This document shows positions 42,420 through 59,930 of a DNA stretch of 64,000 nucleotides, piece by piece (the stretch's first letter is position 1; the number at the start of each line of letters is the position of its first letter). The notes beneath the pieces were generated by a model, which had not been told where the DNA came from, made no database searches, and saw only the letters and a list, made by a program, of their open reading frames with translations. This stretch comes from Thermodesulfobacteriota bacterium. GTDB lineage: Bacteria > Desulfobacterota_D > UBA1144 > Nemesobacterales > UBA2774. The position numbers and the translations under genes are program-made. The DNA is taken from positions 918 through 64,917 of the forward strand of contig BQJP01000008.1 in assembly GCA_021604765.1 (NCBI GenBank), given 5' to 3'.

Positions 42420-42491
42420 GGCGGCGTAGCTCAGGGGCAGAGCGGGGCTCTCATAAGGCCTGTGTCGGTGGTTCAAATCCACCCGTCGCCA
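42420..42491 (+). tRNA. tRNA-Met (anticodon CAT; elongator Met or Ile2/lysidine type)
   Basis: Cloverleaf: acceptor GGCGGCG/CGTCGCC, D-arm GCTC…GAGC, anticodon loop CTCATAA, T-arm GGTGG-TTCAAAT-CCACC. No encoded CCA. Confidence 0.85.
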
Positions 42492-42492
42492 C
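42443..42492 (+). repeat. 50-bp direct repeat copy 1 (3' half of tRNA-Met), putative attL
   Basis: Exact 50/50 identity with 58932-58981. Confidence 0.85.
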
Positions 42493-42656
42493 TCTTTTTA
42501 AACCCCAATATTTATTATATATTTAAATGGATACAGGAACTTACAACTGCCGATATTGAAATTGCTTCTTTTCTATATTTTTCTCTTTTTTTCTCAATTT
42601 TACTACTTTTTATGTCAGAACAATCCCACGAACAAAAAGTAGGATAAAACGAAAGC

Positions 42657-43598
42657 TCAATTTTCCTTTATAAACTCATCAATCAGTTTTGCGATTTGTT
42701 CTGGTGCATCCTCATGACAGTAGTGACCAACTCCCTCTAGAGTATAAATGTTGCCATTCGGAAAAGCCTCACTAAAGAGCGGAAGGAAGTGTGCAGATTG
42801 AAGAGTTTTGTCTTCCATTCCCCATATTGCTAATGCAGGCTTGCGTGATAGCTCTTTTGCTATGAGAGTGTCACTCACCTCAAATCTATGCGTACCTTCC
42901 GCAAACCCCTGAGCCCAACCGATAGCGCCTTTACAATTCTCCGGAGATTTGAAATGATCACGATAAGCATGTAACCAGGTATCTGTGATGACCTCATTAT
43001 GCACGAATCCGTTTAATTTTAGAGTACTGAGAATATTGTAATCAAGCTGTCCGAGAATCTGCCCTAAAGTGCCATCCGCATATGCCTTAGCGATCCAGCT
43101 GAACCATGGAGAGGCCACCCCATTTTTTTCAAGAGCATCAGCAAGACCCGGCTGCCCAAGCGGTGTGGGTCCGTTGGTGCTAATAATCCGCTTAATGCGA
43201 TCTGGATGACGAATAGCCAAGCCAATACCTGTAGGTCCGCCAAAGTCATGCATTACAAGCGTGATGTCTCTCAAGTCAAGATCGAGTACAAACCGCTCAA
43301 GGTTATCGATATGATCCTGAAGCAGATAGCTCCTATCCTGGGGTGTATCACTTTTTCCGAAGCCCATGTGGTCGGGTGCTATTACTCTATATAATGATGA
43401 AAGATCTTGGATGAGATTTCTGAACAAATATCCCCATGTTGGCTCACCGTGAAGGGCCAGTATTGTCTCACCCTCGCCCTCCTCCACATAATGCATCTTG
43501 AAGCCCGGAGCGCTCGTGTAGTAAGCTTCGAAAAGCCACGTTCCTTCAAAGGTTTCCTCAGATGGTAAATCCAATAGCATAGGCGGTTTGTTTTTCAT
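42657..43598 (-). CDS. Alpha/beta hydrolase, haloalkane-dehalogenase-like
   Basis: …HGEPTWGYLFRN… and nucleophile elbow …HDFGG…. Confidence 0.7.
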   Translation of the reverse strand: MKNKPPMLLDLPSEETFEGTWLFEAYYTSAPGFKMHYVEEGEGETILALHGEPTWGYLFRNLIQDLSSLYRVIAPDHMGFGKSDTPQDRSYLLQDHIDNLERFVLDLDLRDITLVMHDFGGPTGIGLAIRHPDRIKRIISTNGPTPLGQPGLADALEKNGVASPWFSWIAKAYADGTLGQILGQLDYNILSTLKLNGFVHNEVITDTWLHAYRDHFKSPENCKGAIGWAQGFAEGTHRFEVSDTLIAKELSRKPALAIWGMEDKTLQSAHFLPLFSEAFPNGNIYTLEGVGHYCHEDAPEQIAKLIDEFIKEN

Positions 43599-44278
43599 TT
43601 TAATTTGCGCTTTTTGGTCATATGTTTAATTGCAACTTTTGTAGTCCATACTGTATTTGCTAGAAAACGGAAATTGGTTAGTGCGGCTTGATAACCGTCT
43701 CCTTCTGGAACCTGTGCTGCAGCAGTTGCGTCTTTCACCACAGCAATTTCAAACCCTTGCTCTAATAGCTCACGTAAATGGGACTCAACACATAAATTGG
43801 CTGACATACCTGCCAAAATAACCTTATCGATCTTACGCTTTCTTAATTGAAGAACAAGGTCGTTTGCTTCTGGACCATATACTTTATGAGGGCTGCATAC
43901 TATTGTTTTGCCATCGTTAATATAGGGTTTATATTGCTCAAGCCAGTCTGCACCTGAACCTTCAAATTCATCTAAATTTAGGGCGCTTTTTCGGTCAAAC
44001 ATTCCTATATAATGCATTAACCTTTCTAATGCACCCTCAAATTTCCAGCCATGATCTGTTGGATAATAATAGTGAGGGGAGATAAAAACCGGTATTCCAT
44101 TTTTCTTTGCGGTTTTAAAAAGAGAATCTAAATTCTTAACAGTGTTGTTCTCAGTTACGTTTTCTCCAACTACACCCCAAGTTACTCCTTCTGGACTTAG
44201 GAAATCATTTTGTGGATCAGTAATAACCAAAGCTGTATTCTTAAAGTCTACTTTTAATCCTGGGTTTGGTAATGCCAT
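43595..44278 (-). CDS. Isochorismatase-family hydrolase
   Basis: …ALVITDPQNDFLSP… with a catalytic …C…. Confidence 0.7.
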   Translation of the reverse strand: MALPNPGLKVDFKNTALVITDPQNDFLSPEGVTWGVVGENVTENNTVKNLDSLFKTAKKNGIPVFISPHYYYPTDHGWKFEGALERLMHYIGMFDRKSALNLDEFEGSGADWLEQYKPYINDGKTIVCSPHKVYGPEANDLVLQLRKRKIDKVILAGMSANLCVESHLRELLEQGFEIAVVKDATAAAQVPEGDGYQAALTNFRFLANTVWTTKVAIKHMTKKRKLK

Positions 44279-44386
44279 TTTTAGTCACCTCTTTATATTA
44301 AGTTTTTATTAAACATTCAAACAAATAGCTCCTTTGAAAGGACTATAGAGGAGAGATTTTTTTGATCTCTCCTCTAAGATGTGCAT

Positions 44387-44734
44387 TCAATTAACAAATA
44401 GAATCCAGCCGTTCTGCTCACTTCCCTCAACCTTGCCTGTGATCTTTACGTTGGTTCTATTAGGGTTTCGCTCTATCTTCATCAAACCGTCTTGAAGACC
44501 TTGAAGTGAATAAACTCTGGTCTCTGTTACAAGAACATGCTGATGAGGTGGCAAACCATCACAAGGATGTGTTGCTATAACCGGATTAACAGTACCTTTG
44601 GCGTAATCTGGTATTAGGCAAATTACATTTCCTTGAACGGTCTTTGAGTCATCTGCATAGCTCAAAGTAGCCGCAAAGATTGAAAGCGTAAGTCCAAATA
44701 TTAATGTTAGCGTTGTTAGTTTTAAGTTTCTCAT
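44387..44734 (-). CDS. Secreted hypothetical protein
   Basis: Signal peptide. 115 aa. Confidence 0.45.
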   Translation of the reverse strand: MRNLKLTTLTLIFGLTLSIFAATLSYADDSKTVQGNVICLIPDYAKGTVNPVIATHPCDGLPPHQHVLVTETRVYSLQGLQDGLMKIERNPNRTNVKITGKVEGSEQNGWILFVN

Positions 44735-44768
44735 TTTAATTTCTCCTTTTTATTGATTTTATTTATGA

Positions 44769-45782
44769 TTATTTTTTAGCTGTGGACTTCTTAACTACAT
44801 TTTTCTGCATAAATCTATCAATGTGATTTGAAATAATGTACAAATCCTCTTCAAGGGCGAAGTGCCCAGTGTCGAGAATGTTAAAATCGATATTCTTTAA
44901 ATCTCGTTTGTAAGGGTAAGCACCTTCAGCAGGAAAAATGTGGTCATTCTTACCCCAGACTATAAGAGTAGGTGGTTGGTGCTTTCTGAGATAAGCCTGC
45001 CAATCTGGATATAACGGTGGATTTGAACCGTAGCTGTAGAATAGAGCGAGTTGGATTTCTTGGTTTCCTGGACGGTCTAATAGAGGCTGGACGTGACCCC
45101 AGTTGTCAGGGCTAATAGTTTCAACATTTCGTACTCCATGAGTATATTGCCACTTAGTTGTGTCCAAGGTTAGGAATCCTTTAAGAGGTTCAGCGTTTGC
45201 CTCAGACCTGTCTTTCCAATAAGCTTTAAGTGGAATCCAAAATTCACGAAGACCCTCTTCATAAGCATTTCCGTTCTGTATTATTAGAGCATCCACCTTT
45301 TCAGGATTTTTAGCTGCGATACGGAAACCAACTGGAGCACCGTAGTCCTGAAGGTATAGGGTGTAATTTTCTATCCCCATTTTGTTGATGAACTTTTCAA
45401 CTACAACTGCTAAGTTATCAAATGTATAATCGAACTCATCAACTGTAGGCATAGAACTGAAACCATATCCTGGATAATCTGGAGCTATCACATGGTATTT
45501 GTCTGAGAGCTCTGGAATAAGATCCCTGAACATATGAGAAGAAGTAGGGAACCCATGCAATAGAACAATAGTGGGAGCATCTTTAGACCCCGCTTCTCTA
45601 TAGAAAATATCTAGTCCGTCTATTTTGATGGTTTTGTGAAGAGTCTGATTGTTACTTTGAGACTGTTCTCCTGCGAACGCAGAAACTCCGCTTAGATCAT
45701 TACTTGATAAATTAGGCGTAATAGATCCAGCAATCATTAATACTAAAAACATCAGTAAAGCTTTTCTAAAAAGGTTTAACAT
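44769..45782 (-). CDS. Secreted alpha/beta hydrolase (epoxide hydrolase/dehalogenase-like)
   Basis: …[10 protein letters not shown]… and …DYGAPVGF… The true start is likely ATG 45782 (MLNLF… signal peptide) with AGGAGG 8 nt upstream. The ORF-track start at 45860 would overlap the promoter. Confidence 0.7.
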
Positions 45783-45819
45783 TGTACTACCTCCTGAAAC
45801 TTTGATAGTTCCTATAAGT

Positions 45820-45834
45820 GCAATGGGCGTGCCA
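45820..45834 (-). promoter_or_regulatory. Sigma-54 (-24/-12) promoter TGGCAC-N5-TTGCA
   Basis: Minus strand reads TGGCACgcccaTTGCA, an exact consensus. It sits about 38 nt upstream of the hydrolase-operon start and next to the bEBP gene. Confidence 0.7.
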
Positions 45835-45970
45835 ATGTAGGGAGTTTTTGCTTGTAACACACTAAGCCACTGACATTAAATGATTTATTGAAACTATTAG
45901 GAAGGTTCAATTACAGAACTAGGTCTGAAAAATTTGGGATATTTAGAAAATCTTTGCTATATGGAAACTT

Positions 45971-47542
45971 CTATCTCTTAGAAATACCAAGCTTTCTCAT
46001 TCGCGATTCTAGGGTGGAAGAGTTCAGCCCTAAGATCTTAGCTGCTCCTTTATCACCACTAACTCTCCCGCCAGTTAATTCTAAAGCTTTTAAAATATGG
46101 TTTTTCTCTAATTCTTCTAAAGTTGCAACCTCATTGCTATCCGACAGCTTATCATTTGTTTTACTTTTAGGTACCCAATCACCCAATTGCAATGTGGTCG
46201 TCTCACTTATAATCACTGCTCTCTCTATTATGTTTTCTAATTCCCTTACATTTCCAGGCCAGTTGTATTCTACAAGACGGCCCATAACCTTCTTACTTAC
46301 AGATTTGATGTTCTTTCCAACCTTTACTCCTAACTTGTCACAAAAGTAATTGACTAATAAAGGTATATCTTCCTTTCTCTCACGTAAGGCTGGAGAATGA
46401 AGGGGAAAAACATTGAGTCTATAAAAAAGATCTTCACGAAAATCTCCTTTTTCAATAGCAGTCTCTAAATCTCGATTAGTAGCTGCTATCACTCTTACGT
46501 CCACTTTCATAGTCTTCGGATTACCAAGTCTTTCAAATTCACCTTCTTGGAGAACCCTAAGCAGCTTAGCTTGTAGTCCCAATGGCAGGTCACCTATTTC
46601 ATCTAAAAATATAGTGCCGCCATTAGCAAGTTCAAATCTGCCGATTTTTTGACTTATAGCCCCGGTAAAAGCCCCCTTTTCATGACCGAATAACTCGCTC
46701 TCTATTAAATTAGCGGGAAGTGCAGAACAATTTACTTTTACCAAAGGTCTATCTTTTCTGGAGCTGTTGTTATGTACTGCACGTGCTAATAATTCTTTGC
46801 CTGTACCCGTCTCTCCCAGTATCAATACAGTCGAACTTGTTTGTGCAACCTGTTCAACTTTTTTTAATACTTTTTTTATTGTGTTACTTTTACCAATTAT
46901 CTCCGTAAAGTTGTATTCCTCTTTGATTTCTTCCTGAAGGTAAATATTTTCTTGTTCAAGTTGGTTCTTTAACTTCTCTACTTCAGAATAAGCCTGTTTA
47001 AGCGCCTCTTCCGCCTCTTTTTCTTTAGTTACATCTCTGAAAACAACAACTGCACCAACCAATTTACCTTTTTCCCATATAGGGGTGCTAACATATTCAA
47101 CAGGAAAGCTGCTTCCGTCTTTTCGCCAAAATACTTCATCTTTTACAACATGAACCTTGCCATCTTTGAAGGCTGCATATATAGGACACTCAGTGTTTGG
47201 ATAATGTGATCCATCAGCTCTTGAATGATGCAAGATCTTGTGTTGAGATTTCCCTAGGAGTTCTTCGGGATTCCAACCAATCATTTCTGCTGCCGCTGGG
47301 TTAACGAAGGTTGTATTTCCTTTTGAATCAAGGCCGTAGATTCCTTCTCCCGCAGCATTAAGGATTAACTCATTCCTTGTTTTAAGTTTGCTGATTTCAT
47401 CGCTCATCTCTTTTATCTTAACATGCGAGTATTTTTTTTCGAAGATATCTAAAACGTTAATTGTTCCTTTTACAACTTCATTGTTGAAAGTATTTTCTGA
47501 GAATGTTTCTTTTATTATTTTAGACATATCAAGCTCCTCCAA
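45971..47542 (-). CDS. Sigma-54-dependent transcriptional activator (PAS + AAA+ + Fis HTH)
   Basis: PAS domain, Walker [15 protein letters not shown] motif, [15 protein letters not shown], and a C-terminal HTH. Confidence 0.9.
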
Positions 47543-47558
47543 AAAACTGCTTTGTTAT

Positions 47559-47574
47559 TACCGAACGTTCGGTA
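47559..47574 (+). promoter_or_regulatory. Perfect 16-bp palindrome TACCGAACGTTCGGTA (putative TetR operator 1) overlapping a TATAAT box
   Basis: Perfect dyad. TATAAT at 47573-47578. Confidence 0.55.
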
Positions 47575-47618
47575 TAATTACATCATATTTGATTTTTATT
47601 ATGTTGTCAAGTATTTTT

Positions 47619-47636
47619 TTACCGTACGTTCGGTAA
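47619..47636 (+). promoter_or_regulatory. Near-palindrome TTACCGTACGTTCGGTAA (putative TetR operator 2)
   Basis: 17/18 symmetric. It lies 34 nt upstream of the TetR ATG and 45 bp from operator 1. Confidence 0.5.
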
Positions 47637-47669
47637 CGTGGCAGTCTGCAAATTCTGAAGGAGACGAAT

Positions 47670-48245
47670 ATGGCTAGAAATAAAAGTGTTGATGACGAGA
47701 CCCTGATCATAAAACTGACACAAGCTTTCCGTGATTATGGATACGAAGGTGCATCCTTAAATATCTTAGCAAAAGCTACAGGACTTCAAAAAGCGAGTCT
47801 ATATCATAGGTTTCCTGGGGGAAAAGAAGAGATGGCTCTAGAGGTCTTAAATAGGGCGGGCAACTGGGTTGGAGAAAATATTGTATTACCGCTAACTTCA
47901 AATATTAAACCCGAGAAGAAAATTAAAATCATGGCAAAAAAACTTGATGAATTTTATTCGGGCGGAAATAATTCATGTTTACTTAACATGTTAGCCTCCC
48001 CAGAGATGATAAAGGGCCCATTTACAAGTCATATTAAAGAAGCATTTGAAGTTTGGATAAAAACACTATCAGATGTGCTTGTAGAAAGCGGACTAAGTAG
48101 AAAAGAAAGCAGGAAAAGAGCAGAAAATGCTATAGCCATGCTTCAGGGTTCCCTCGTTATGTCTAGAGGAATGAATGACCCAAAACTTTTTAAAAACTTT
48201 CTAAAGAACTTACCTAACATGCTATTAGATAATAATAAGTTATAA
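47670..48245 (+). CDS. TetR-family transcriptional regulator
   Basis: HTH …ASLNILAKATGLQKASLYHRFPGGKEEM…. Confidence 0.8.
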   Translation: MARNKSVDDETLIIKLTQAFRDYGYEGASLNILAKATGLQKASLYHRFPGGKEEMALEVLNRAGNWVGENIVLPLTSNIKPEKKIKIMAKKLDEFYSGGNNSCLLNMLASPEMIKGPFTSHIKEAFEVWIKTLSDVLVESGLSRKESRKRAENAIAMLQGSLVMSRGMNDPKLFKNFLKNLPNMLLDNNKL

Positions 48246-48250
48246 CTCTA

Positions 48251-48291
48251 AAAAAAGGAGTACAAACAATTAAGCTTGTACTCCTTTTCTA
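48251..48291. terminator. Bidirectional intrinsic terminator (A-tract, 9-bp stem GGAGTACAA/TTGTACTCC, T-tract)
   Basis: Lies between the convergent TetR (+) and YHS (-) genes. Confidence 0.6.
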
Positions 48292-48315
48292 TGCCAAATT
48301 CTATTCTATATTTAA

Positions 48316-48777
48316 TTAAAGATCAGCGGGATCTTTGTCTTTTATATTTGGCCAATGCTTGTTTGCTTTTACTATATTGCCTGGAATATCTTCAAACCAT
48401 ATTTTCTGGATTTTTTTATCGAGATTAAGATATAGAGTTCCATCTACGATTTTCCATGCTTCAGGATCTCCGACAAATTTCTTACCTACTGATGCACCAT
48501 ATGCACAGTAACCTCCGTATGCCGGAAGATATTTATTAGGATTCGCTTCAAATGCCTTCTTGTTCGCTTCGTTGGCAAAGAGGTAAGTCACATCGTCAAT
48601 TACAACTAGGTTGTTTCCGTCACCTCTTACAGGTTTTCCTTCTGTATGATATGCAACAAGGTCATAACCTAGAACACCTGTTGTGCTTTCTTGAACATAT
48701 CCTGCAAAAGAATCAACTGCAAAAAAACTTACTGCTACAACTAAAACTGTTAACATAATTGTTTGAATTTTCTTCAT
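48316..48777 (-). CDS. Secreted YHS-domain-like protein
   Basis: Signal peptide, …GYDLVAY…YLF.NE.NK.AF..NP.KYLPAYGGYCAYG…. Confidence 0.55.
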   Translation of the reverse strand: MKKIQTIMLTVLVVAVSFFAVDSFAGYVQESTTGVLGYDLVAYHTEGKPVRGDGNNLVVIDDVTYLFANEANKKAFEANPNKYLPAYGGYCAYGASVGKKFVGDPEAWKIVDGTLYLNLDKKIQKIWFEDIPGNIVKANKHWPNIKDKDPADL

Positions 48778-48991
48778 GATAGTCTCCTATTTTGTTATTT
48801 TGTGAAACATTCTGTCCCAATGTGTACTCAAAATATCTGATTCTCTACTACTCTGACATTGCCCTAATTTACTAAGCTAGGATTAGCAAATATTGGATCA
48901 AGTAATTAAACTTGAGCCATAATTTGAACGACTCGTTTGTTTATATATTCATCACCCCCTTGTGACTATATATTGGCTAGAATCTGATCTC

Positions 48992-49720
48992 CTATATCAG
49001 CTCAACCATGTTGTACTGAGACAATTTATCCTTGAACTGAAGCCTTGCTCTCCTAAGCCTGGACTTAACTGCACTGAGGCTTAGACCGAGCAATCTTCCA
49101 ACTTCAAGATTTGTGTGTCCTTCCATATCTTTTAAACGAAGCACAGTTCGGTATATTTCAGGAATCTCCATTAGTATTGATTCAATTTTTTCACGTCTCT
49201 TTTCTTGCATGAGTATTTGATCTGGAATAAACCTCCAGTCTTCTGCAGGCATAGAATACTTAGTTTCTTTCTCATCGTATGTTTCTTCTATAAGCTGTTT
49301 TTCATCTTGATACTTTTTATTACTTCTCAAATACATAAGACAAGTATTTTTAGCTATGCTATATAGCCAGGTAGAGAACTTGGATTCGTTTCTAAATGTT
49401 CCGAGCTTCTCTACAAGTGTTATGAAAACTTCCTGAAGAACATCATCAGCATTTCTTTCATTTTTGGTAAATTTAAGTGCAAGCCTGTATATCTTGCAGC
49501 TATATCTGTTTACAAGTTCATTAAATGCCCACTCATCTTTGTGATTTAAATAGAGTTTGACTAAATTTTCATCATCCTCATTTCTATACCTAATAAAAGA
49601 AAAATCCTCTGATTTATCAATTAGCGGTGACTCTATTACGTGTTTAATAGGTCTCTGCTTAACCTGGTAATTTGCAATATTATCTATATTGTTTGACTCT
49701 GCTAAATTAGTATTTTCCAT
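48992..49720 (-). CDS. ECF (sigma-70 family) sigma factor with N-terminal extension
   Basis: Region 2 …DVLQEVFITLVEKLGTF… and region 4 …RLLGLSLSAVKSRLRRAR…. Confidence 0.8.
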   Translation of the reverse strand: MENTNLAESNNIDNIANYQVKQRPIKHVIESPLIDKSEDFSFIRYRNEDDENLVKLYLNHKDEWAFNELVNRYSCKIYRLALKFTKNERNADDVLQEVFITLVEKLGTFRNESKFSTWLYSIAKNTCLMYLRSNKKYQDEKQLIEETYDEKETKYSMPAEDWRFIPDQILMQEKRREKIESILMEIPEIYRTVLRLKDMEGHTNLEVGRLLGLSLSAVKSRLRRARLQFKDKLSQYNMVELI

Positions 49721-50053
49721 CTTTCTTCTCCTTTTCTAATTCTTATTAATTTTTATTTACTACATGTATGTATAAAGCAAGGAGTGTGCCAAATATAAAA
49801 ATTAGGCTGGAGGATAATGTAATTGCCTTAAATAATTGAATTAAATTAACATTTAGGTGGAGCTTGGCTGAGGTTAACGTATTGAGATCAAATGTATTTA
49901 TTTACGCTATATTATAAATTTGCGAAATGTCACGACTTACTATTTCAATTTGATCTAAAGATAAGGTGTTGAGTAAACATGAATAGGAAGTCTTCTTGCA
50001 ATCTAATTATCTGTATTTTCCTAAAACTAATTATTTGCATCTCACTTTTATTG

Positions 50054-50560
50054 TTAGTAAGTAAAGGCGATGCCTATTAGTATTGCCTTAGAAGATTCTG
50101 CATGATATAAACCGATCTCAAACCCACAATCAATTGCTATTTGATCATTGGCCTCATATACAAAACTAGTTTTATGATATATTGGTTTTTCAGTATCATA
50201 TTCGGCAAACTCTCCTGCTACTTCTGAAACAACTGCTGTATTTTTTCTAAACGTAGGAACTTCTATCTCCAGCCCATAGTAAAACATTTCATCAAAAGGT
50301 TGGTCTATAAATATCTTGCTAGTTGGTGAATAGCCAAATTCCTCTTGTATTGGTGTAATAAATAGAATTTTTTCTAGTCCTAGCAAAACATCTGATTCAG
50401 ATCCAATTACTCTATATTCAATTCCTGTCTCTAACTCAACCTCCACTTTTTCGGATATATAGTCATAAACACCTTCGGTTGAAGAATGAGCAAACACTAA
50501 TTGAGAATTGAGAACGATGAAGAGTAAAAAAATCGTGTGAATAATAATTTTAAATAACAT
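50054..50560 (-). CDS. Secreted hypothetical protein
   Basis: Signal peptide. 168 aa. Tightly linked downstream of the TPR gene. Confidence 0.45.
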   Translation of the reverse strand: MLFKIIIHTIFLLFIVLNSQLVFAHSSTEGVYDYISEKVEVELETGIEYRVIGSESDVLLGLEKILFITPIQEEFGYSPTSKIFIDQPFDEMFYYGLEIEVPTFRKNTAVVSEVAGEFAEYDTEKPIYHKTSFVYEANDQIAIDCGFEIGLYHAESSKAILIGIAFTY

Positions 50561-50593
50561 TATGTTTCCCCCATATTTTTATTATATGAGACC

Positions 50594-51916: not shown

Positions 51917-51958
51917 GGTTTATCCTCCTATTTAGATTGCAAATTAAGCAGTAAAATG

Positions 51959-51979
51959 AGGGGGCATGCTGCCCCCTCT
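51959..51979 (-). terminator. Intercistronic hairpin (9-bp GC stem GAGGGGGCA/TGCCCCCTC) between the DUF4331 and TPR genes
   Basis: Perfect 9-bp stem with a 3-nt loop. The downstream U-tract on the minus strand is weak, so this is a possible partial terminator or attenuator. Confidence 0.35.
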
Positions 51980-51988
51980 ATTATTCTA

Positions 51989-53647
51989 TTAATCAACTGG
52001 ACAAAAGCCCGTGTCTGTACCTGTACAACCAAACTCTCCTGGATCAACGTGACGGCTATTGCGTCCATCATTTGGATAATTCAAATAAGGAAATGATGTG
52101 CGGTATGGAAGCACATCATTTGCGTTAACACCATCGCCAATTCTATTGTGAGGAAAGATGTTGAAATCAGGATTTAATACTCCTACAGCTACACGGGATG
52201 TAATATCAATCACATCATCAATCACACGACGTCCGTTAGGAAATCCGGCAGGGTCATCATTGAACTCATCATCATCAAGAACGGTCAGGAAACCTAAACG
52301 GCTTTGCTGATCAGGCGGTGTTGGAGGAACTCCAGTGTTAAGTCTGAGCAGGTCAGCAATCGGTCCTGTTGGTGTTCCCTCAGGAGCAATAGGTGCTGTG
52401 TACTGTACTAGTGGTAAAAGATCAAGCCTTGGAACATTAGGTATAGGAAGAATGTTCGGGCCAAATAGAGCCTCATATACTGAGTTCAATACTCTAGCAA
52501 TTACTGGATCGAGAAAGAAATCTGAGAACTCTGCATCATTTTTTGGCTGAGCCATACTGAACTTATCTTTAAATCCAATACCAATGATTAGCTCGTTAAT
52601 TAGAGGATTAGCCATTCTTTGAATCTGAGTGAATCTTCTTGATAGTCTGGGATCTTCTCCAGGTCCTCTGAAAGTTTTCTTGGTAGGTCTTGAGCTTGTT
52701 CCCCACATACCTATTGTGGACTCTGGTTCTGAGGCGCTATGAATCTCGCCATCGCTAGTTAGAAGTTCTATTGGAACTTCTATGGCAATAGCGTTTACGT
52801 TATAACCAGAGAACTCATCAGAAGCATAGTTGTTAAAATCATCAGCATCTTGTTCATCAGTTAATACACCCTGTACAACAAAACCTTGGGTTCTGAAATT
52901 GAATGAATCGAATGCTGCGCCAAGATCTAGCCAGAACGGATCATCAACAGTACCGGCAAAAGATTTAACACCGTTATCAAGCTTATAAATACCCTGCTCA
53001 AATAATAATGGGTAATTAGGCATGGTTCTTGGGCCTGCATTGGTAGGAACTTTAAATAGTGATCCACCGTTAGCATTTTGAAGGACTGTACGTTTCTTTC
53101 CTTTTACCATTGTAACGGTATAGGACTGTCTTAGACCAAGTCCTTCAGACCCGGGTCCATCTAAAGCTGTAATTGCTGGTGGGACAACCAGCTGTCCAAC
53201 AGTTGAATTTCCGTTTAAGTCATCCGGAGAATTAGCTGGCGCATTTACACCACCAAGCGCACCAACATACGCAGTAAATACATTTGGTAATCGAATTTCA
53301 TTCTGAAAGCGAAATTCGAAAACTATATCTTCCACTGCGTCATGGTCGTTATCAACCCTAATTGCATATAGAATTTCAGGATCGAAGGGGAAATATGTAG
53401 GACCGTTTCCTGGTTCTAGAAACGGGTCGTAAGTTACAATCATTGTAACTTTGTCAGAAGCGCTAGGATCCGAAGGATCATAACTTACGAAAGCAAATAC
53501 ATCTGGTATATCGGCTTCGTCATCTATCGCAGTTATAGGAGCCTCTCTATGATTAGCTGCCTGTGCGATATTTTGAATACTTGTAATAGACATTGTTAAG
53601 CCCATTATCAATAATGCAAATACGGTGAAAACTCTTGAAATACTCAT
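51989..53647 (-). CDS. Secreted DUF4331-family protein
   Basis: Signal peptide, then …ANHREAP…DDEADIPDVFAF… The true start is likely ATG 53647 (MSISRVF) with GGAGGT 7 nt upstream. Confidence 0.6.
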   Translation of the reverse strand: MSISRVFTVFALLIMGLTMSITSIQNIAQAANHREAPITAIDDEADIPDVFAFVSYDPSDPSASDKVTMIVTYDPFLEPGNGPTYFPFDPEILYAIRVDNDHDAVEDIVFEFRFQNEIRLPNVFTAYVGALGGVNAPANSPDDLNGNSTVGQLVVPPAITALDGPGSEGLGLRQSYTVTMVKGKKRTVLQNANGGSLFKVPTNAGPRTMPNYPLLFEQGIYKLDNGVKSFAGTVDDPFWLDLGAAFDSFNFRTQGFVVQGVLTDEQDADDFNNYASDEFSGYNVNAIAIEVPIELLTSDGEIHSASEPESTIGMWGTSSRPTKKTFRGPGEDPRLSRRFTQIQRMANPLINELIIGIGFKDKFSMAQPKNDAEFSDFFLDPVIARVLNSVYEALFGPNILPIPNVPRLDLLPLVQYTAPIAPEGTPTGPIADLLRLNTGVPPTPPDQQSRLGFLTVLDDDEFNDDPAGFPNGRRVIDDVIDITSRVAVGVLNPDFNIFPHNRIGDGVNANDVLPYRTSFPYLNYPNDGRNSRHVDPGEFGCTGTDTGFCPVD

Positions 53648-53681
53648 AATTCTTACCTCCATTGAAGTTGTTTTGAATATA

Positions 53682-53709
53682 TATACGGAGGTTGTTCTGA
53701 ATTGGAGCA
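53682..53709 (-). promoter_or_regulatory. ECF-type promoter TGCTCCAA-N14-CGTATA upstream of DUF4331
   Basis: Minus strand: TGCTCC (53709-53704), a 16-nt spacer, then CGTATA (53687-53682). It shares the motif found at 55081, 55651 and 57085. Confidence 0.55.
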
Positions 53710-53769
53710 TATATTTTATAGAACTAATATGTATTTTATAATATATATGTATTATTTTGACTTCTGGAA

Positions 53770-53802
53770 ACTAAAACGGCTGCCTTTTAGACAGCCGTTT
53801 AT
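53770..53802 (-). terminator. Intrinsic terminator after msrB (stem AACGGCTG/CAGCCGTT, U-tract on minus strand)
   Basis: 8-bp stem at 53775-53782 and 53792-53799. Confidence 0.5.
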
Positions 53803-53881
53803 ACAAGATAGGAGATTAAGAGATGATTCTTAAAGGGGGATTTAGATTCTTTGTTACGATAAATTTTATCAATATGCACTA

Positions 53882-54412
53882 TTAATTCTTTTCCTCTACA
53901 AAAACAAGCGCACCCGAGTTTAAACAATATCTAAGGCCTGTTGGTTCTGGTCCATCGTTGAAGACGTGTCCCAAATGCTCTCCGCATTTTGACAAAACTT
54001 CAGTTCTTTTAAAACCTAGGTCGTAATCATCCTTGAGTACTATTGCATCTTCAGAGATAGGTTGATAGAAACTCGGCCATCCAGTACCAGAATCGTATTT
54101 ATGTTCTGAACTAAATACTGGCTCTTTACAGCCTGCGGTTAGGTATACGCCTTCCTTCTTATTGTAAAGCAGATCTCCCGAGAATGCTTTTTCTGTTCCT
54201 TTCTCCCAAAGCAACTGATACTGAACCGGCGTTAACCTTTGCTTCCATTCTTCTTTGGTAATTTTTGAGAGATCATTTGTGTTGGATTCTTCCTGCGTAG
54301 CCTCTGAAACTTTCACATAACCAATTGACTCTTTTTGCGTTGAATTAAAATATAATAGCCCAAGAGCTAAAATCACTACTAACATTATTCCCGTCGATAT
54401 TCTTTCATTCAT
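53882..54412 (-). CDS. msrB: Peptide-methionine (R)-S-oxide reductase MsrB with N-terminal signal/anchor
   Basis: …[24 protein letters not shown]… catalytic Cys motif. A Cys pair (…GCKEPVF…CGEH…) is consistent with the zinc site. Confidence 0.85.
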
Positions 54413-54481
54413 GGTTTTCTCCTCTAAAATAGAAGGCGCTTTTGAATTGCTATAAGCGCCCCTCTATTGTTTTTCATATAC

Positions 54482-55048
54482 TTAATTAGGTAATACAACA
54501 GTGTCTATGACGTGGATTACACCGTTTGACTGTATTACGTCATATGTCGTAATATTTGCAAAATTGCCCATTTCGTCCTTAAGAACAACGTTTGTTGGAC
54601 CATTCATCCAAGCAACTAAAGTATCACCACTAGCAGTTTTGAACTCAGCCTGTCCGCCTGCAGCTTTGATCTGCTCTGAAAGAGCCTTGAAATCTAGTCT
54701 TCCAGGAATTACATGATATGTGAGCACCTTAGTAAGGGTTTCCTTATTCTCGGGTTTTAGAAGTGTCTCAACAGTTCCTTCAGGTAGGTTTTCAAAAGCG
54801 TCATTTGTAGGAGCAAATACTGTAAATGGTCCTGGGCTTTTGAGAGTCTCAACCAACTCAGCTGCTTTTACTGCTGCAACCAAAGTGGTATGATCCTTCG
54901 AGTTAACAGCGTTGTCTATAATATCCTTTGTAGGATACATAGCCTCACCGCCAACTATTACATTACTTGCAAAAACATTTGATGCTGCCACTGTTAAAGT
55001 AGCAACAACAAGAAACATCATAATAAATTTTTTGAATATACTGTGCAT
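54482..55048 (-). CDS. Secreted fasciclin (FAS1) domain protein
   Basis: …FTVFAPTNDAF…TYHVIPG… FAS1 motifs. Confidence 0.85.
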   Translation of the reverse strand: MHSIFKKFIMMFLVVATLTVAASNVFASNVIVGGEAMYPTKDIIDNAVNSKDHTTLVAAVKAAELVETLKSPGPFTVFAPTNDAFENLPEGTVETLLKPENKETLTKVLTYHVIPGRLDFKALSEQIKAAGGQAEFKTASGDTLVAWMNGPTNVVLKDEMGNFANITTYDVIQSNGVIHVIDTVVLPN

Positions 55049-55080
55049 TTAAGCACCTCCTTAATTTTTTTTCATATATG

Positions 55081-55108
55081 ATTACGGAGGTTACTTTGAG
55101 TTGGATCA
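55081..55108 (-). promoter_or_regulatory. ECF-type promoter TGATCCAA-N14-CGTAAT upstream of fasciclin-msrB
   Basis: Minus strand: TGATCC (55108-55103), a 16-nt spacer, then CGTAAT (55086-55081). RBS GGAGGTG before ATG 55048. Confidence 0.6.
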
Positions 55109-55244
55109 TAAAAAAGAATATTTTTTTGATTAGCACGAACTTTATTATAGAAAGTAGACTGCGAAATTATTCAGATTAGCATATGAGACGATAAAGCAAT
55201 TTAATCTCTAGTAACAATAAGGAGTTAATATTTTTTAGATTACA

Positions 55245-55292
55245 AAAAAGACGGGGGAAGCCTTGTCTATTATGGACTTGGCTTCCCTCTTT
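55245..55292 (-). terminator. Intrinsic terminator (stem GGGAAGCC/GGCTTCCC) after the small secreted protein gene
   Basis: 8-bp GC stem at 55255-55262 and 55280-55287. The minus strand is followed by CCGTCTTTTTT. Confidence 0.55.
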
Positions 55293-55307
55293 TGGGTTGG
55301 GGTATGG

Positions 55308-55586
55308 TTATGATTTGTTGGCTGTGGGGACACTAACGCCAAAGACTATCAAACTGTCTTGATCACTCGAATTATTAACTTGCTTCGAGTCTGTTTCTAT
55401 ATTTTCGCCTTTTGAGCTTATATAGAAACTAATGAAATCTGTCTCAACCATTCCACCTTTTGCTTGGTCGTTAACAGTGCTTTTAACTACGGGTGTTTGT
55501 ACACCGAAAACGTTAACGTCTGCAAAGGATAAGGAAGGACTTAGTAGAGCTAGACTCAATGTTGCTATTGCTAATAGCTTTCTCAT
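55308..55586 (-). CDS. Small secreted hypothetical protein
   Basis: 92 aa with a signal peptide. Confidence 0.5.
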   Translation of the reverse strand: MRKLLAIATLSLALLSPSLSFADVNVFGVQTPVVKSTVNDQAKGGMVETDFISFYISSKGENIETDSKQVNNSSDQDSLIVFGVSVPTANKS

Positions 55587-55650
55587 TTGACTTACCTCCT
55601 TTTAAAATATTTATTCTGAGCCGCTAGGATCATGAATATGTTTTCCTAAG

Positions 55651-55678
55651 ATTACGTTGATACAATAATATTGGATCA
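55651..55678 (-). promoter_or_regulatory. ECF-type promoter TGATCCAA-N14-CGTAAT upstream of the small secreted protein gene
   Basis: Minus strand: TGATCC (55678-55673), a 16-nt spacer, then CGTAAT (55656-55651). Confidence 0.55.
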
Positions 55679-55772
55679 CTTATTTTAATAAGAGGTGGAT
55701 TTATTGAGATTATTACAATTGTTAAGATTTATATTATAGAAAATTATATGAATATTCGATCAAGAATGAAGC

Positions 55773-56381
55773 TTATTCGGCAGGCAACATCTCATTTTCT
55801 TGAGAAGCTTGTATTAATAGGAAACAACCTGTTACAGTGGAAATACTTTCATGAACACTATGTGCATCAGCTCGAATATAATCTCCTTTACCAAAGGTCA
55901 TTCCGCCCATGCTTAACTCACCTTCTATGATGTAACACTCTTCAGCTTCTGCATGAACATGGTCTGGGAAAGTCGATCCAGGATCCATTTTTACAAGAAC
56001 AGTTGAATACTTTCGGGCAGGATCTTCATAAAGCTGTTTTACTTTGACACCATCTACGACTTCAACCCAATCACCTTGATTTTCTCGCACAAATAGATAA
56101 CCGGTTTCCTTCTCTGCTACATCCCTTTCTTTTTGGATTTTTGTAAAAAGTTTATCCTCTAAGCCTCTTGGTTCTTTGCGGGGCTCAGTACTATAAGTTA
56201 CGTCTTCCATTATTTCGTTGAAGTAATCAAGATGCACAGATGCTGAGCCATTTTCTTTAAGCATAGCCTCAAATACTGCTTTATCTTCGTCACCTAAAAC
56301 TCCTAATGCATAAGAAGCAGCCAGATCTTGAATTTCTTCGTCAGTGTACTTTTGACTCATATAAATGTCCTTGTTCTTCAT
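55773..56381 (-). CDS. Cytoplasmic anti-sigma factor: RskA-like N-terminal sigma-binding domain + C-terminal cupin (ChrR-like architecture)
   Basis: N-terminus …LAASYALGVLGDEDKAVFEAML… with no Cys and no TM. C-terminal cupin …VLVKMDPGSTFPDHVH…EECYIIEGEL… It overlaps the ECF sigma gene upstream. Confidence 0.65.
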   Translation of the reverse strand: MKNKDIYMSQKYTDEEIQDLAASYALGVLGDEDKAVFEAMLKENGSASVHLDYFNEIMEDVTYSTEPRKEPRGLEDKLFTKIQKERDVAEKETGYLFVRENQGDWVEVVDGVKVKQLYEDPARKYSTVLVKMDPGSTFPDHVHAEAEECYIIEGELSMGGMTFGKGDYIRADAHSVHESISTVTGCFLLIQASQENEMLPAE

Positions 56382-57021
56382 TAATTATATTCTTCATTTT
56401 AACCATTGCAACTCTGATAGTGCTCTTTACAGATCCTACGGGAATACCAACTTTATCCGCAATTTCACTATGGCTGTACTGATGATAATAAGAAAGCTCC
56501 ACGACCTCTTTTTGCTTAGGTGTGAGTTGAGCCATGGCATGTTTTGTGATTTTTCTCATTTCTGAAGCAACATAAGTATCTTCAGGATTATCTGTTCCCG
56601 TCACCATGCTATCATCAATGCTATCGTCAATGTGAACTGTTTTTGCACTTTTTCTAATCTTATCAATTGAACGGCTCCTGGTAATCATCAATAACCAACT
56701 TAAAGGCTTGCTCAGATCTGAATCATATTTGGATGCGTTGTTCCATACATACATAAATACCTCAAGGGCAACTTCTTCAGCCTCTTCCGGATTAGAAATA
56801 ATCTTATGAGACATACTGTAAACTAGTCTTACAGTTTGTTGGTAAAACGTTCTCATTGCATTTTCATCGCCATTTGAAATTAGCGATAATAATGTTTTTA
56901 ATTCATTTTCCCTGTCAGTGTGCTCAGTAGCAACTGTAGCAGTATCCTGATTCATTTTTTCCCTGTAACTATCTAAGAATAATATGTTAGAATCATTTAT
57001 CTTTGCCATTATATCACACAC
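56341..57021 (-). CDS. ECF sigma factor (cognate to the cupin anti-sigma)
   Basis: Sigma-70 region 2 …EVALEVFMYVWNNASKYD… and region 4 …YSHSEIADKVGIPVGSVKSTI…. Confidence 0.8.
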   Translation of the reverse strand: MCDIMAKINDSNILFLDSYREKMNQDTATVATEHTDRENELKTLLSLISNGDENAMRTFYQQTVRLVYSMSHKIISNPEEAEEVALEVFMYVWNNASKYDSDLSKPLSWLLMITRSRSIDKIRKSAKTVHIDDSIDDSMVTGTDNPEDTYVASEMRKITKHAMAQLTPKQKEVVELSYYHQYSHSEIADKVGIPVGSVKSTIRVAMVKMKNIINEEQGHLYESKVH

Positions 57022-57084
57022 TCTATTCTATATCCAATCATTAAATTACCTTTTTATAGTTACAGAAATACTTATTCGAATAGT

Positions 57085-57112
57085 AATACGACAACTAGAT
57101 CAAATTGGATCA
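57085..57112 (-). promoter_or_regulatory. Autoregulatory ECF promoter TGATCCAA-N14-CGTATT
   Basis: Minus strand: TGATCC (57112-57107), a 16-nt spacer, then CGTATT (57090-57085). It lies upstream of the ECF/anti-sigma operon. Confidence 0.6.
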
Positions 57113-57208
57113 CTTATCTTTGTACTTAAGAAGAAAACATAGAAATGGAGCTGTATTAATAAGAGGTATTCTGCTATGCTTGCAGTAGTTTAGGATAGTT
57201 TGCAAGTT

Positions 57209-57799
57209 CTATTCATCTAATAAATTTAGAGTGTTTTTTAGTTTATCTTTAGCTAGTCTGATTGTGCTTTTTACAGAACCGACAGGCATATCCAACATTT
57301 CTGCAATTTCTGACTGATTGAATTGATAGAAGTAGACAAGCTCTATAACTTTTCTCTGCTTTGGGCTTAATTCCAATAAAGCATCCTGAACGATTTTACG
57401 CTTTTCCTGCCCTAAAACTGTATCTTCCGGGCTAAGATCAGTATTCGTCAATTCTCTTTCGAGCGAATCAGAAATCTCCATGGTGACTTTCCGTGAACGT
57501 AGTTTGTCTATGGCACGTGAGCGTGCAATCATTACAAGCCATGTAGTCGGGTTACTTTGTGAAGGATCAAAATTTGAAGCATTTTTCCAGACATACTTAT
57601 ATACATCTAGGGCAACTTCCTCAGATTCAGATGTATCACTAAGTATTTTCAGCACAAGGCTATATATCAGTCTATTAGACTCATCGTATAATTCACCTAG
57701 TGCATTATCATTTTGTTTTGCAATCTGTGTTAAAAGACGTTGCCATCTTTGATTTCTTTCTAAGGAAGTTTCGGATTTTATATTGATATCTGATGACAT
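57209..57799 (-). CDS. ECF sigma factor
   Basis: Region 2 …EVALDVYKYVWKNASNFD… and region 4 …FNQSEIAEMLDMPVGSVKSTIRLAK…. Confidence 0.8.
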   Translation of the reverse strand: MSSDINIKSETSLERNQRWQRLLTQIAKQNDNALGELYDESNRLIYSLVLKILSDTSESEEVALDVYKYVWKNASNFDPSQSNPTTWLVMIARSRAIDKLRSRKVTMEISDSLERELTNTDLSPEDTVLGQEKRKIVQDALLELSPKQRKVIELVYFYQFNQSEIAEMLDMPVGSVKSTIRLAKDKLKNTLNLLDE

Positions 57800-57990
57800 A
57801 TCTTATCCGTAAGCGGTTATGTAATTTTATACTATACAAAATTAACTGTATAGCGCAGCTAATATTAATTTATCACATAAAGTGAGCGAAATTTCAAAAG
57901 CGGACGTATACATGTTACAAAATATAGAAAAGTTATATGTAATTGTACTTTGATGTTACAAGATGTACCATATTATAATTGAGGAATAGC

Positions 57991-58806
57991 ATGCCTTACG
58001 ACGACAGAATCGAAGAGTTAATATCGGCTTATACACTTGGTGTACTAGACGGTAATGAACTTAAAGAACTCGAAGATTATATAAGAAAAAACCCTGGTGT
58101 TTACCAAGAATTAATCAATGAGAATGAAGCAGTATTCTCTCAGTTAGCTTATGTCCTAAAAGTCTCTAGTCCAAGACCAGGATTACGAAATGAACTATTG
58201 TCAGATATACAAAAAGAAAAAAAGGTTTATGAAATTGAGACCAAACCGCCTTTCTGGCAAAGGTTACAGCCCCTGTGGCTGGGGTTAGGCAGTGCTGTTG
58301 CAGCAATTCTGATAATTTCTCTATTTACCTATAGTTCGTCTCTCAATAACACTGTAAAAGAGCAGCAAGCTAAGATTTCAAATCTTGAGGCTCTTATCTC
58401 CGAAAAAGATTCGGAACTAGCTTTGCTACAAGAAGAATTCGGCTCGCAATCCGAAATGTTAGCGTTTCTTGATAATCCTGAAGTTGTTATTATAAATCTT
58501 GTAAAAACAGAGCCCAATCTAAAAGCTGTGGCCAGAGTGCTCTGGAACCCAGGGGATGATGAAGCACTGTTTTATGGAATAAACCTCCCGGAGGTTCCTG
58601 AAGGCAAGACTTACCAATTATGGGCAATAGCAGGAGAAAAGCCTGAAAGCCTGGGTGTATTTAATGTTGACAATCATGGCAACAATGTTCATCTAATAAA
58701 ATCTCTCAGTAATTTTGGTGACATCGGTACTTTTGCAGTCAGCCTTGAGCCAGCAGGCGGGGTTCCTCTACCTACCGGGAAGGTATATCTAGCCGGTGAA
58801 ATTTAG
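57991..58806 (+). CDS. Membrane anti-sigma factor (RskA / anti-sigma-K type)
   Basis: N-terminus …LISAYTLGVLDGNELKELEDY…, a single TM (…LGLGSAVAAILIISLF…), and a periplasmic C-domain. It is divergent from the ECF gene at 57799, with its own TTGATG-18-TATAAT promoter. ATG 57991 has GAGGA upstream. Confidence 0.7.
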   Translation: MPYDDRIEELISAYTLGVLDGNELKELEDYIRKNPGVYQELINENEAVFSQLAYVLKVSSPRPGLRNELLSDIQKEKKVYEIETKPPFWQRLQPLWLGLGSAVAAILIISLFTYSSSLNNTVKEQQAKISNLEALISEKDSELALLQEEFGSQSEMLAFLDNPEVVIINLVKTEPNLKAVARVLWNPGDDEALFYGINLPEVPEGKTYQLWAIAGEKPESLGVFNVDNHGNNVHLIKSLSNFGDIGTFAVSLEPAGGVPLPTGKVYLAGEI

Positions 58807-58931
58807 CCATTATATTTATTTTTGATCAACCTAAAATATGCAAATAAATGGAAGAACAATCCCACTACAATCACATAAGTTCATAAATAGCATGATAAAT
58901 CTAACAATTCAAGTGAGTTGTGCACTTGGAA

Positions 58932-58981
58932 CGGGGCTCTCATAAGGCCTGTGTCGGTGGTTCAAATCCACCCGTCGCCAC
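58932..58981 (+). repeat. 50-bp direct repeat copy 2 (3' half of tRNA-Met), putative attR
   Basis: Exact copy of 42443-42492. There is no 5' tRNA half here, so it is not a functional tRNA. Confidence 0.85.
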
Positions 58982-59007
58982 CAATCATTTCAATGTCTTA
59001 AGCTGAT

Positions 59008-59229
59008 TCATAAATTTCCTTCGATGCCCAAGTCAGTGGATTTGCCAGTAACAGAAGAGTATTTCCCTAATATGTCAGTCCCTTTTCTCACACTTTCTTC
59101 TGGATGACTATATCTCTCGGTTATCTTTACTGTTGAATGGCCTAGTAGCTTTGCTACTGCATGAAGAAGTATTTCAGACCCTACTAATCTTGTAGCTACA
59201 GTATGACGTAAGCCGTGAAATCCGAGACC
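59008..59229 (-). pseudogene. Tyrosine recombinase (phage integrase) C-terminal remnant
   Basis: Minus-strand translation GLGFHGLRHTVATRLVGSEILLHAVAKLLGHSTVKITERYSHPEE…* carries the catalytic-box R, H.LGH and Y. An in-frame stop lies immediately upstream, leaving only ~73 codons. Confidence 0.75.
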
Positions 59230-59351
59230 TTATTTATTCTGATCTATCAATCTCACAATTTGTATATTAAATACAAAAAGAAAAATATATAATATGGTAT
59301 TGAACCTTTCTGGCTCATGGTGTTACTTACTGTTCAAACGGATAGGAAAAA

Positions 59352-59930
59352 ATGAATAAAACACCGGAAAATACAAATCATTCAGACTTGCAACTGATAG
59401 AGGAAATTGTGGATAGCAACAAAGAGGCGTTTAAAGCTCTCTATGAAAAGTATGTACGGCAGGTTTTCTCTTTTGTTTACAAAATAACGAGGGATTCAAA
59501 GCTTACAGAGGAAGTTGTAAACGATACCATGTTTGAGGTTTGGAAAGGTGCTGCAAATTTCAAAGGAAATTCAACTGTATTGACGTGGATTTTTGGAATT
59601 GCACATAACAAATCGATGAACGAGCTTAGAAAGAAAAGACCTGAAGCCCTCGATCCTGAAGAGTTCTCAAGATTTGCAAGTTCCGATGAAACTGCGGAGG
59701 AAATTGTGGTGAAGAAAGATAGATCAGAAAGAATGAATTATGCTATGAGCGAACTTTCCCCAGAGCATAGAACAGTTTTAGAGCTTACTTTTTATAACGG
59801 TTTGTCATATCAGGAAATAGCAGAAATTATGGAATGTCCCGTAAATACAGTAAAAACCAGGATGTTTTATGCAAAAAATAAGCTTAAGGAAAGTCTCAGT
59901 AAATACGGAATCAATCAACAGGAGTTATAG
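59352..59930 (+). CDS. ECF sigma factor
   Basis: Region 2 …EEVVNDTMFEVWKGAANF… and region 4 …LSYQEIAEIMECPVNTVKTRM…. Confidence 0.8.
   Translation: MNKTPENTNHSDLQLIEEIVDSNKEAFKALYEKYVRQVFSFVYKITRDSKLTEEVVNDTMFEVWKGAANFKGNSTVLTWIFGIAHNKSMNELRKKRPEALDPEEFSRFASSDETAEEIVVKKDRSERMNYAMSELSPEHRTVLELTFYNGLSYQEIAEIMECPVNTVKTRMFYAKNKLKESLSKYGINQQEL

Follow-up and report, generated by a model that had tools for sequence, protein, structure and literature searches.

The Islander principle has been described for islands in tRNA and tmRNA genes, which are recognized by an intact tRNA gene, a cognate 3' fragment in direct orientation on the same replicon and an integrase gene (PF00589, non-Xer) inside the interval, and anticodon-centred "A" att sites are known among them (PMC4383910). 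Cis-mobilizable elements (CIMEs), which keep both att sites and lack integration and transfer genes, have been reviewed together with tandem accretion, including ICESt1/ICESt3-CIME of Streptococcus thermophilus (ICE, integrative and conjugative element; PMC5704250). In Dehalococcoides, the tandem islands at ssrA show similarity around each repeat (PMC2764846). A comparable arrangement is described here in a stretch of 64,000 nt (the window, i.e., the whole stretch analyzed) from contig BQJP01000008.1 of a metagenome-assembled genome (MAG). The 3' end of the tRNA-Met gene of this window is probably a site-specific integration hotspot in a marine Dadabacteria-like clade, and two or more islands are probably arrayed in tandem in the window itself: a 16.4-kb island without a recombinase gene (island 1), followed by the presumed remains of an older island that would have entered by the tyrosine integrase Int-A. 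Islands and integrases are not mentioned in the main paper on marine Dadabacteria (PMC8115339). The features at the two junctions are as follows.

42420-42492, + strand: intact tRNA-Met(CAT), called by ARAGORN and by Rfam (61.6 bits); putative attL of island 1
42493-42656: non-coding module of 164 nt at the left end of island 1 (the "type B" flank), delimited by alignment of flanks
42493-58928: island 1, 16.4 kb, no recombinase gene
58850-58928, + strand: P arm at the right end of island 1
58929-58981, + strand: displaced 3' fragment of tRNA-Met, tRNA positions ~21-73; putative attR of island 1 and attL of the older island
58982-59010: CCA-ATCA and a short spacer of the integrase-side arm (the "type A" flank)
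59011-59229, - strand: C-terminal remnant of a tyrosine integrase (Int-A), 73 codons, identified by translation, Pfam and 82-83% identity to intact integrases

The tRNA-Met gene is the sole tRNA gene found in the window by both ARAGORN and Rfam. Its CCA end is not encoded (..GCCACTC), and it is not of the initiator type because, as read from the sequence, the G1-C72 pair is present and the anticodon stem has no run of three G-C pairs. The identity of 42443-42492 and 58932-58981 over 50 nt, which the original prediction had noticed, is reproduced by a repeat search and by a script, and the repeat reaches 53 nt with one mismatch (42440/58929), giving a shared block (42440-42492 in the tRNA gene) that spans the end of the D stem (~position 21) to the acceptor end. 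No further copy of the 50-nt repeat is present in the window, and an exact repeat of this length in 64 kb is far beyond chance. An intact tRNA gene and its cognate 3' fragment thus stand in direct orientation on the same replicon, both on the + strand. The 23 nt 5' of the second copy agree with the tRNA 5' half at only ~4 of 23 positions by reading, and this copy yields no tRNA call with ARAGORN or with Rfam (E<=1); with the 5' half absent and no tRNA call, the second copy is therefore a displaced 3' fragment and not a degenerate second gene.

Directly beyond the fragment and its short spacer, the frame 59011-59229 on the - strand reads GLGFHGLRHTVATRLV..LLGHSTVKITERYSH.. and opens directly after a stop. 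It matches positions 128-169 of 172 in the Pfam family Phage_integrase (PF00589) with 41.6 bits (cutoff 27.1), and it retains HxLRH (HGLRH), LLGH, RYSH and the catalytic Tyr, so that the box II residues (HxxR, H/W, Y) are found above threshold; a complete catalytic domain and the N-terminal DNA-binding domains are not found in the remnant. Approximately 280 N-terminal codons are gone, and the remnant is therefore non-functional. Searches with jackhmmer using an intact integrase reveal no other tyrosine recombinase in the window and its right-hand extension, the latter being provided by an identical Logan contig (L001/L106, run DRR328265; L-numbers denote the loci and contigs of relatives compared with the window) that starts inside the repeat and ends in unique DNA at window-equivalent 73387. 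Inside 42493-58928, no recombinase is found by Pfam on all open reading frames or by jackhmmer with the intact integrase on all stop-free frames, and the only match to an integrase is thus the 73-codon remnant outside the interval, in agreement with the predicted ~73-codon fragment as the only recombinase.

A scan of metagenomes with the 50-mer gave 20 contigs. Intact Int-A homologues of 357 aa (L097) and 353 aa (L089), 82-83% identical over the remnant, are encoded in metagenome contigs immediately 3' of a full tRNA-Met and convergent with it, in the same geometry as the remnant beside the fragment. The original prediction had suggested a search for an intact homologue and had called the position of the remnant a normal one for an int gene next to a tRNA gene; both points come out in its favour in these contigs. 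Because these homologues adjoin full tRNA-Met genes, the remnant is read as the decayed integrase of a tRNA-Met-specific island family. The intact integrase scores 123.7 bits with Phage_integrase and falls below every cutoff of NCBIfam; by sequence it is a generic tyrosine recombinase. Neither a relative of Int-A nor the 50-mer is found in IMG/VR, and a phage origin was rejected for lack of IMG/VR relatives. Additionally, L087, L102, L105 and L002 carry, at the same position beside tRNA-Met, an integrase remnant of a second family that is 37% identical to Int-A. In L087, L102 and L105 this remnant lies 17 nt after the tRNA, and in all four loci the first ~45 nt 3' of the tRNA resemble the type-B flank.

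The insertion is polymorphic among relatives. A scan of a genome collection by SCO1 alignment returned, among the matches listed, mostly Burkholderiales, with L002-L010 as useful loci, and five relatives were recovered via SCO1, the tRNA neighbour, whose homologues are annotated as Candidatus Dadabacteria or Thermodesulfobacteriota. Exact-protein look-ups for SCO1, PCuAC and DUF4331 of the window matched no record, and one protein from the extension is identical to a protein in the NCBI MAG DHS20C13. Left of the tRNA gene, the window encodes ParB, ParA, an M23 peptidase, bactofilin, PCuAC and SCO1. Nucleotide identity to the window is 92% for L082, 78% for L083, 81.5% for L084, 77.5% for L085 and 74% for L002. 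The aligned core stops exactly at 42492 in L082, L083 and L085, and alignment past the tRNA reaches only into a short flank in L084 (137 nt) and L002 (11 nt). Downstream of the tRNA, all five relatives differ from one another and from the window, and a core anchor, h133-h111-(permease)-GDH-MsrB-MFS-SDR, reappears at variable distances. The informative sites are listed below.

L082 (closest relative): empty site, tRNA-CCAATCA-AmTr-MT20-h133-h111-permease-GDH-MsrB-MFS (AmTr, aminotransferase; MT20, methyltransferase)
L083: full tRNA followed by DNA homologous to the window, 208 nt aligned to 58929-59136, including part of the integrase scar
L085: first 19 nt of the flank from 58982 onward shared
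L091: full tRNA, then the MsrB-MFS anchor 163 nt later
L100: full tRNA directly followed by h111/h133-like anchor genes
L099: P arm, 54-nt tRNA fragment, then h133 after 36 nt; this is a canonical attR adjoining core genes
L109-L111 (L082 lineage): the same aminotransferase and methyltransferase as in L082 beside an island end, and therefore native there

Island 1 is absent from the tRNA-Met site in L082, L083 and L085. The empty site is precise: L083 and L085 continue from a single tRNA-Met directly into DNA matching 58982 onward, as the original prediction had anticipated, and L082, L091 and L100 are empty. CCAATCA lies directly 3' of the tRNA in L082, L083, L085, L090, L093 and L097, and the type-A match extends further in L083, L085, L089 and L097. 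The reading of the 50-nt copy as an att signature of integration into a tRNA 3' end is therefore supported by empty sites, intact integrases and the absent 5' half; relatives do not share the gene content between the tRNA and the copy.

The ends of island 1 are conserved as well. In the P arm, a 22-nt motif, AACAATCCCACTACAATCACAT, is located at 58855-58876, and its GAAC.. form begins 75 nt before the fragment. In the window, L088 and L099 alike, the motif AAYAATCNCAYNACAATCACAT precedes the tRNA fragment by exactly 75 nt, within a homologous arm of ~100 nt, and the three fragments all begin at tRNA position ~20-21. No chance match to the motif occurred in 100 shuffles, the motif is exact in only 4 of 108 loci, and an nhmmer profile of the P arm finds a single copy in the 73.4 kb of window plus extension. 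At the left end, the first ~55 nt of type B are conserved after a tRNA or tRNA fragment in L084, L088, L094 and L098, and L084 shares 80% identity with the window over 320 nt, a stretch that takes in the tRNA with the adjoining 137 nt of its flank. The arm motif recurs in part, as GAACAATCCCAC, at 42618-42629, and a partial or full copy is found ~126 nt into type-B flanks. A 46-nt T-rich stretch at 42566-42611 is identical to L084 at 46 of 46 positions, whereas identity is only ~80% in the DNA around it and in the core. Type B was rejected as the native trailer of the tRNA, as other native flanks or genes are present in L082, L099, L100 and L109-L111, and as the decayed 3' end of an integrase, as three-frame translations show nothing recognizable.

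Other islands occupy the same site. The metagenome contig Ga0209633_10000317 (L088 and L108) begins with an island end consisting of a P arm and a 54-nt fragment, followed by a type-B flank, and continues through ~24.6 kb that include narGH to a degenerate P arm and a fragment that is exact over 27 nt, with h133 another 30 nt on. By its sequence it is another island, the ends of which are built like those of island 1. No integrase is seen in the ~13 kb covered of its 24.6 kb. In L086 (37-2938), a 2.8-kb islet corresponds to an L101-type site with an insert and is bounded by tRNA-Met and a 43-nt fragment, which starts at the first base of the anticodon loop (nt 32). The islet encodes an NmrA-like protein, a membrane protein and a 97-aa protein and no integrase, and the DNA after its fragment is identical to the flank 3' of the tRNA in L101. 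In L109 (reverse-complemented, 7004-7087), L110 and L111, a P arm and tRNA positions 20-35 are fused to codon 91 of the aminotransferase gene; the fused tRNA segment ends after CTCA, inside the anticodon loop, a deletion endpoint that would be expected from an aberrant integrase-mediated event. Clusters for respiratory nitrogen metabolism are found at the same hotspot, namely the nitrous-oxide reductase cluster nosZ-nosDFYL in L083 (1420-9065) and narGH with a cytochrome c in L108 (14827-20402), and genes of the respiratory nitrogen cycle thus seem to belong to the island cargo of the clade.

A mechanism that accounts for these structures would be repeated tyrosine-integrase insertion at the tRNA-Met core over time, which would give rise to a tandem array. 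An older island would have entered by means of Int-A, with its int gene ~26-29 nt past the tRNA end and converging on the tRNA, and of that integrase only the C-terminal 73 codons at 59011-59229 would be left. Island 1 would then lie between the full tRNA and the scar, with the regenerated tRNA on its left and, on its right, the arm followed by the displaced 53-nt fragment, so that the predicted order of the array is tRNA, island 1, fragment and decayed Int-A island. The breakpoints in L086 and L109-L111 point to the anticodon loop as the site of the putative strand exchange, as in the "A" class of att sites (PMC4383910). Both att sites are present (50 nt intact), the P arm is conserved and no int, xis, relaxase or type IV secretion system (T4SS) gene is found, and island 1 therefore fits the CIME definition (PMC5704250). 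Because the arm is shared, an Int-A-family integrase may have inserted island 1 in trans and could in principle excise it; alternatively, island 1 may have lost an integrase of its own. The structure of the array does not tell which of the two insertions came first. The scar in L083 is as similar to the window as the core is (77.9% vs 78.1%), which suggests that the Int-A scar predates the split of the window lineage and L083.

Several observations weigh against this interpretation. The linkage across the 50-nt repeat is seen in the MAG contig alone, as the Logan contig starts inside the repeat. The type-B left flank differs from the Int-A side arm, and the ends of island 1 can therefore not be assigned to one integrase family with certainty. 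No single contig contains a complete Int-A island (int, its own P arm and fragment), and the link between Int-A and the P arm consists of the juxtaposition in the window and an inverted arm upstream of int in L089 and L097. Up to window-equivalent 73387, no fragment or arm marks the right end of the array; a search for this end via h133 homologues returned contigs of the L082 lineage or of other strains and no DHS20C13 protein. Finally, GC content is 0.370 in island 1 and 0.387 in the core. Of the compositional difference looked for by the original prediction, a deviation at 46-52 kb is present and the overall values are barely separated, and composition was discarded as a nearly uninformative island test.

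The inverted arms in L097 (1599-1699) and L089 (10727-10827), both in tRNA-oriented coordinates, consist of a P arm with the motif and tRNA positions 20-43. They lie ~370-450 nt upstream of the intact int gene, on the int strand, cover the whole anticodon stem-loop and diverge in sequence after that. The int gene is thus bracketed by a real core and an inverted pseudo-att site, which might mimic an operator, work as an invertible switch or be a relic. A broader model, offered tentatively, is that tRNA-Met serves as a stacking platform for integrase-less cargo islands with conserved ends (a type-B module on the left and a P arm with AAYAATCNCAYNACAATCACAT), and that the Int-A of a separate minimal island would act in trans to insert and shuffle them. 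One integrase might then conceivably serve many cassettes, from the 2.8-kb islet to blocks of 16-25 kb carrying regulons, nos or nar, and it is possible, if somewhat speculative, that the inverted arm and pseudo-core upstream of int act as an autoregulatory operator.

Among the alternatives, the best that survives is that island 1 is a fusion of at least two accreted islands, of type-B/Int-C-family origin on the left and of Int-A-family origin on the right, with an internal fragment and an integrase deleted, and this appears unlikely. The resemblance of the first ~45 nt of type B to the flank of the contigs with the 37%-identical remnant would be consistent with a fusion, as would the uneven GC content in island 1 (0.34 at 48-52 kb and 0.38-0.40 elsewhere) and the different lengths of the hotspot fragments (54, 53, 43 and 27 nt). 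However, no internal fragment or arm is detected in 42.5-58.9 kb with an nhmmer profile of the P arm and core or with blastn-short, the same layout with type B on the left and a P arm on the right recurs in an independent second island, and no integrase coding residue is detectable in the type-B flank.

It is more doubtful still that the P arm, fragment, type-A flank and int together represent the intact attP of one Int-A element, linked to the chromosome by another route (for example, an excised circle that re-inserted, or homologous recombination of ECF sigma genes with one another), with type B and part of the 16.4 kb as resident DNA. The middle site of tandem related elements is attP-like by construction, so that the formally attP-like junction at 58850-59229, with a P arm and an int-side arm, is accommodated by a tandem array as well. 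Type B follows full tRNAs in many contigs and a fragment once (L088), as a native flank would; in the closest lineage, however, another native flank and native genes directly follow the tRNA or fragment (L082, L099, L109-L111), and in L088/L108 the distance from type B to the core anchor is 24.6 kb and ends in another arm and fragment. An attP origin additionally requires an extra illegitimate event.

An assembly artefact, in which a repeat node was crossed twice and the real structure is an island-1-free chromosome (tRNA, then the int scar) plus a circle or DNA of another strain, is given marginally less credence. The source is a MAG, the k-mer-based Logan contig (DRR328265) begins in the repeat and does not confirm the linkage, and the assembly graph would be equally compatible with a chromosome and a circle. 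The 50-53-nt repeat is, on the other hand, shorter than a typical read and than the large k-mers of metagenome assemblers, both junctions are structured as expected for attL and attR, and analogous arrays exist in independent contigs (L086; L088/L108); even with such an artefact, island 1 would be a tRNA-Met integrative element in excised form. That the 50-nt copy is what remains of another tRNA-Met gene, or stems from a local segmental duplication, and has nothing to do with integration is scarcely credible, for although bacteria often have several CAT-anticodon tRNA genes, a second tRNA gene was rejected for want of any ARAGORN or Rfam call and of a 5' half, the start of the fragment and the arm preceding it are the same in L088 and L099, and the integrase remnant adjoins the copy with nothing else duplicated.

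The contents of island 1 are described next. The cargo list of the original prediction agrees with the Pfam assignments (two alpha/beta hydrolases, an isochorismatase, a PAS activator, three ECF sigmas, and ChrR-cupin and RskA anti-sigmas, among others). The operon and its regulatory features are the following.

42657-45860, - strand: hydrolase operon encoding an alpha/beta hydrolase, an isochorismatase, a 115-aa protein and a secreted alpha/beta hydrolase (Pfam)
45819-45834, - strand: match to the sigma-54 promoter consensus, TGGCACGCCCATTGCA, located 37 nt before the probable operon start
45971-47542, - strand: PAS/sigma-54 activator with AAA+ and HTH_8 domains (Pfam, Sigma54_activat, 253 bits)
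49776-49791, - strand: another match to the sigma-54 promoter consensus, located 56 nt before the ECF sigma gene at 48992-49720

According to the N-terminal translation, the last gene of the hydrolase operon probably starts at 45782. Strict matches to TGGCAY-N5-TTGC number only two in 64 kb, both inside island 1, and a sigma-54 activator may drive an ECF sigma cascade. The remaining cargo comprises TetR, a YHS protein, a group of ECF sigma, 168-aa, TPR and DUF4331 proteins, MsrB, fasciclin, an ECF-ChrR pair and an ECF-RskA pair. The MsrB of island 1 (53882-54412, - strand; 176 aa) has an N-terminal extension and is only 48% identical to the core MsrB, which L082 and distant Dadabacteria encode downstream of the hotspot, and its sequence marks it as an extra, non-orthologous copy. 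By Pfam, neither island 1 nor 59.3-64 kb contains phage structural or conjugation (T4SS/relaxase) genes, and neither region is identified as a prophage or ICE.

Right of the integrase remnant, a second block begins.

59301-64000, + strand: ECF sigma, zf-HC2 anti-sigma, S8 protease and a 999-aa secreted protein (Pfam)
59301-59326 and 62430-62455, + strand: ECF-type promoters, with further copies at window-equivalent 65629 and 66408 in L106

This block runs to at least window-equivalent 73387 in the Logan contig. The promoter motif TGAACCTTT-N12-GTTAC occurs in four copies, each 25-40 nt before a start codon, and the genes behind them are the ECF sigma operon and the genes for the 999-aa protein, a 193-aa protein and a 159-aa protein; judged from the shared promoters, this is an ECF-type autoregulated regulon of secreted proteins. 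Two tandem paralogues of ~438 aa, 57% identical to each other, are encoded at 9158-11943 of L106 (window-equivalent 68113-70898); they are named CSLREA or "choice-of-anchor Q" domain proteins by the sources, with no Pfam match on record. The original prediction had placed the ECF/anti-sigma/S8/large-protein block in a second, tandem element. The decayed integrase remnant supports such an element, but the block is no more than a candidate part of it, since L083 shares the scar only.

The locus shows that, in a streamlined and uncultivated marine lineage, strain-specific genes are gathered at a single tRNA-Met beside the parAB region. These genes (ECF and sigma-54 regulons, nitrous-oxide reductase clusters and nitrate reductase clusters) differ by strain and appear to be exchanged via a simple tyrosine-integrase system. 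The analysis also provides precise island boundaries for MAG curation, and the intact genes in L089 and L097 provide a candidate integrase/att pair as a possible site-specific tool for the phylum.

In attP sites of the lambda type, arm-type sites flank the core. The joined ends of island 1 resemble such a site in that one arm bears a short conserved motif at a constant distance of 75 nt and the motif recurs ~126 nt into the opposite arm. Unlike in lambda-type sites, the role of the motif as an arm site is putative; it could equally be an operator or promoter element, and it is inverted upstream of int in the intact Int-A contigs.

Like Islander islands (PMC4383910), the array has a regenerated tRNA and a directly repeated, displaced 3' fragment at its ends, an identity block from the anticodon stem to the 3' end, a tyrosine integrase abutting the tRNA in intact relatives and tandem arrays at one tDNA. 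It differs in that island 1 is without an integrase and would be rejected by Islander's filter, with 73 codons kept in the neighbour, and in that no phage or conjugation genes are seen in the islands examined here. Like CIMEs (PMC5704250), island 1 keeps attL and attR without integration genes and lies in tandem with a related element across a hybrid middle site, whereas in comparison with ICESt1/ICESt3-CIME the neighbour is decayed, no resident integrase or conjugation machinery is visible, mobilization is putative, the target is a tRNA gene instead of fda and the host belongs to an uncultivated marine lineage. The Dehalococcoides ssrA islands (PMC2764846) share a streamlined genome, a single tDNA hotspot, many direct 3'-end repeats among strain-specific cargo, ~150 bp of similarity around the repeats and some repeat-bounded units without an integrase; they differ in the block (53-54 nt of tRNA-Met here, 19-20 nt of ssrA there) and in the cargo, which is regulatory and stress-related here, with nos and nar in relatives, and consists of reductive dehalogenases there. 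Taken together, these comparisons give good support to a classical tRNA-island signature with tandem accretion, in which no new mechanism is revealed.

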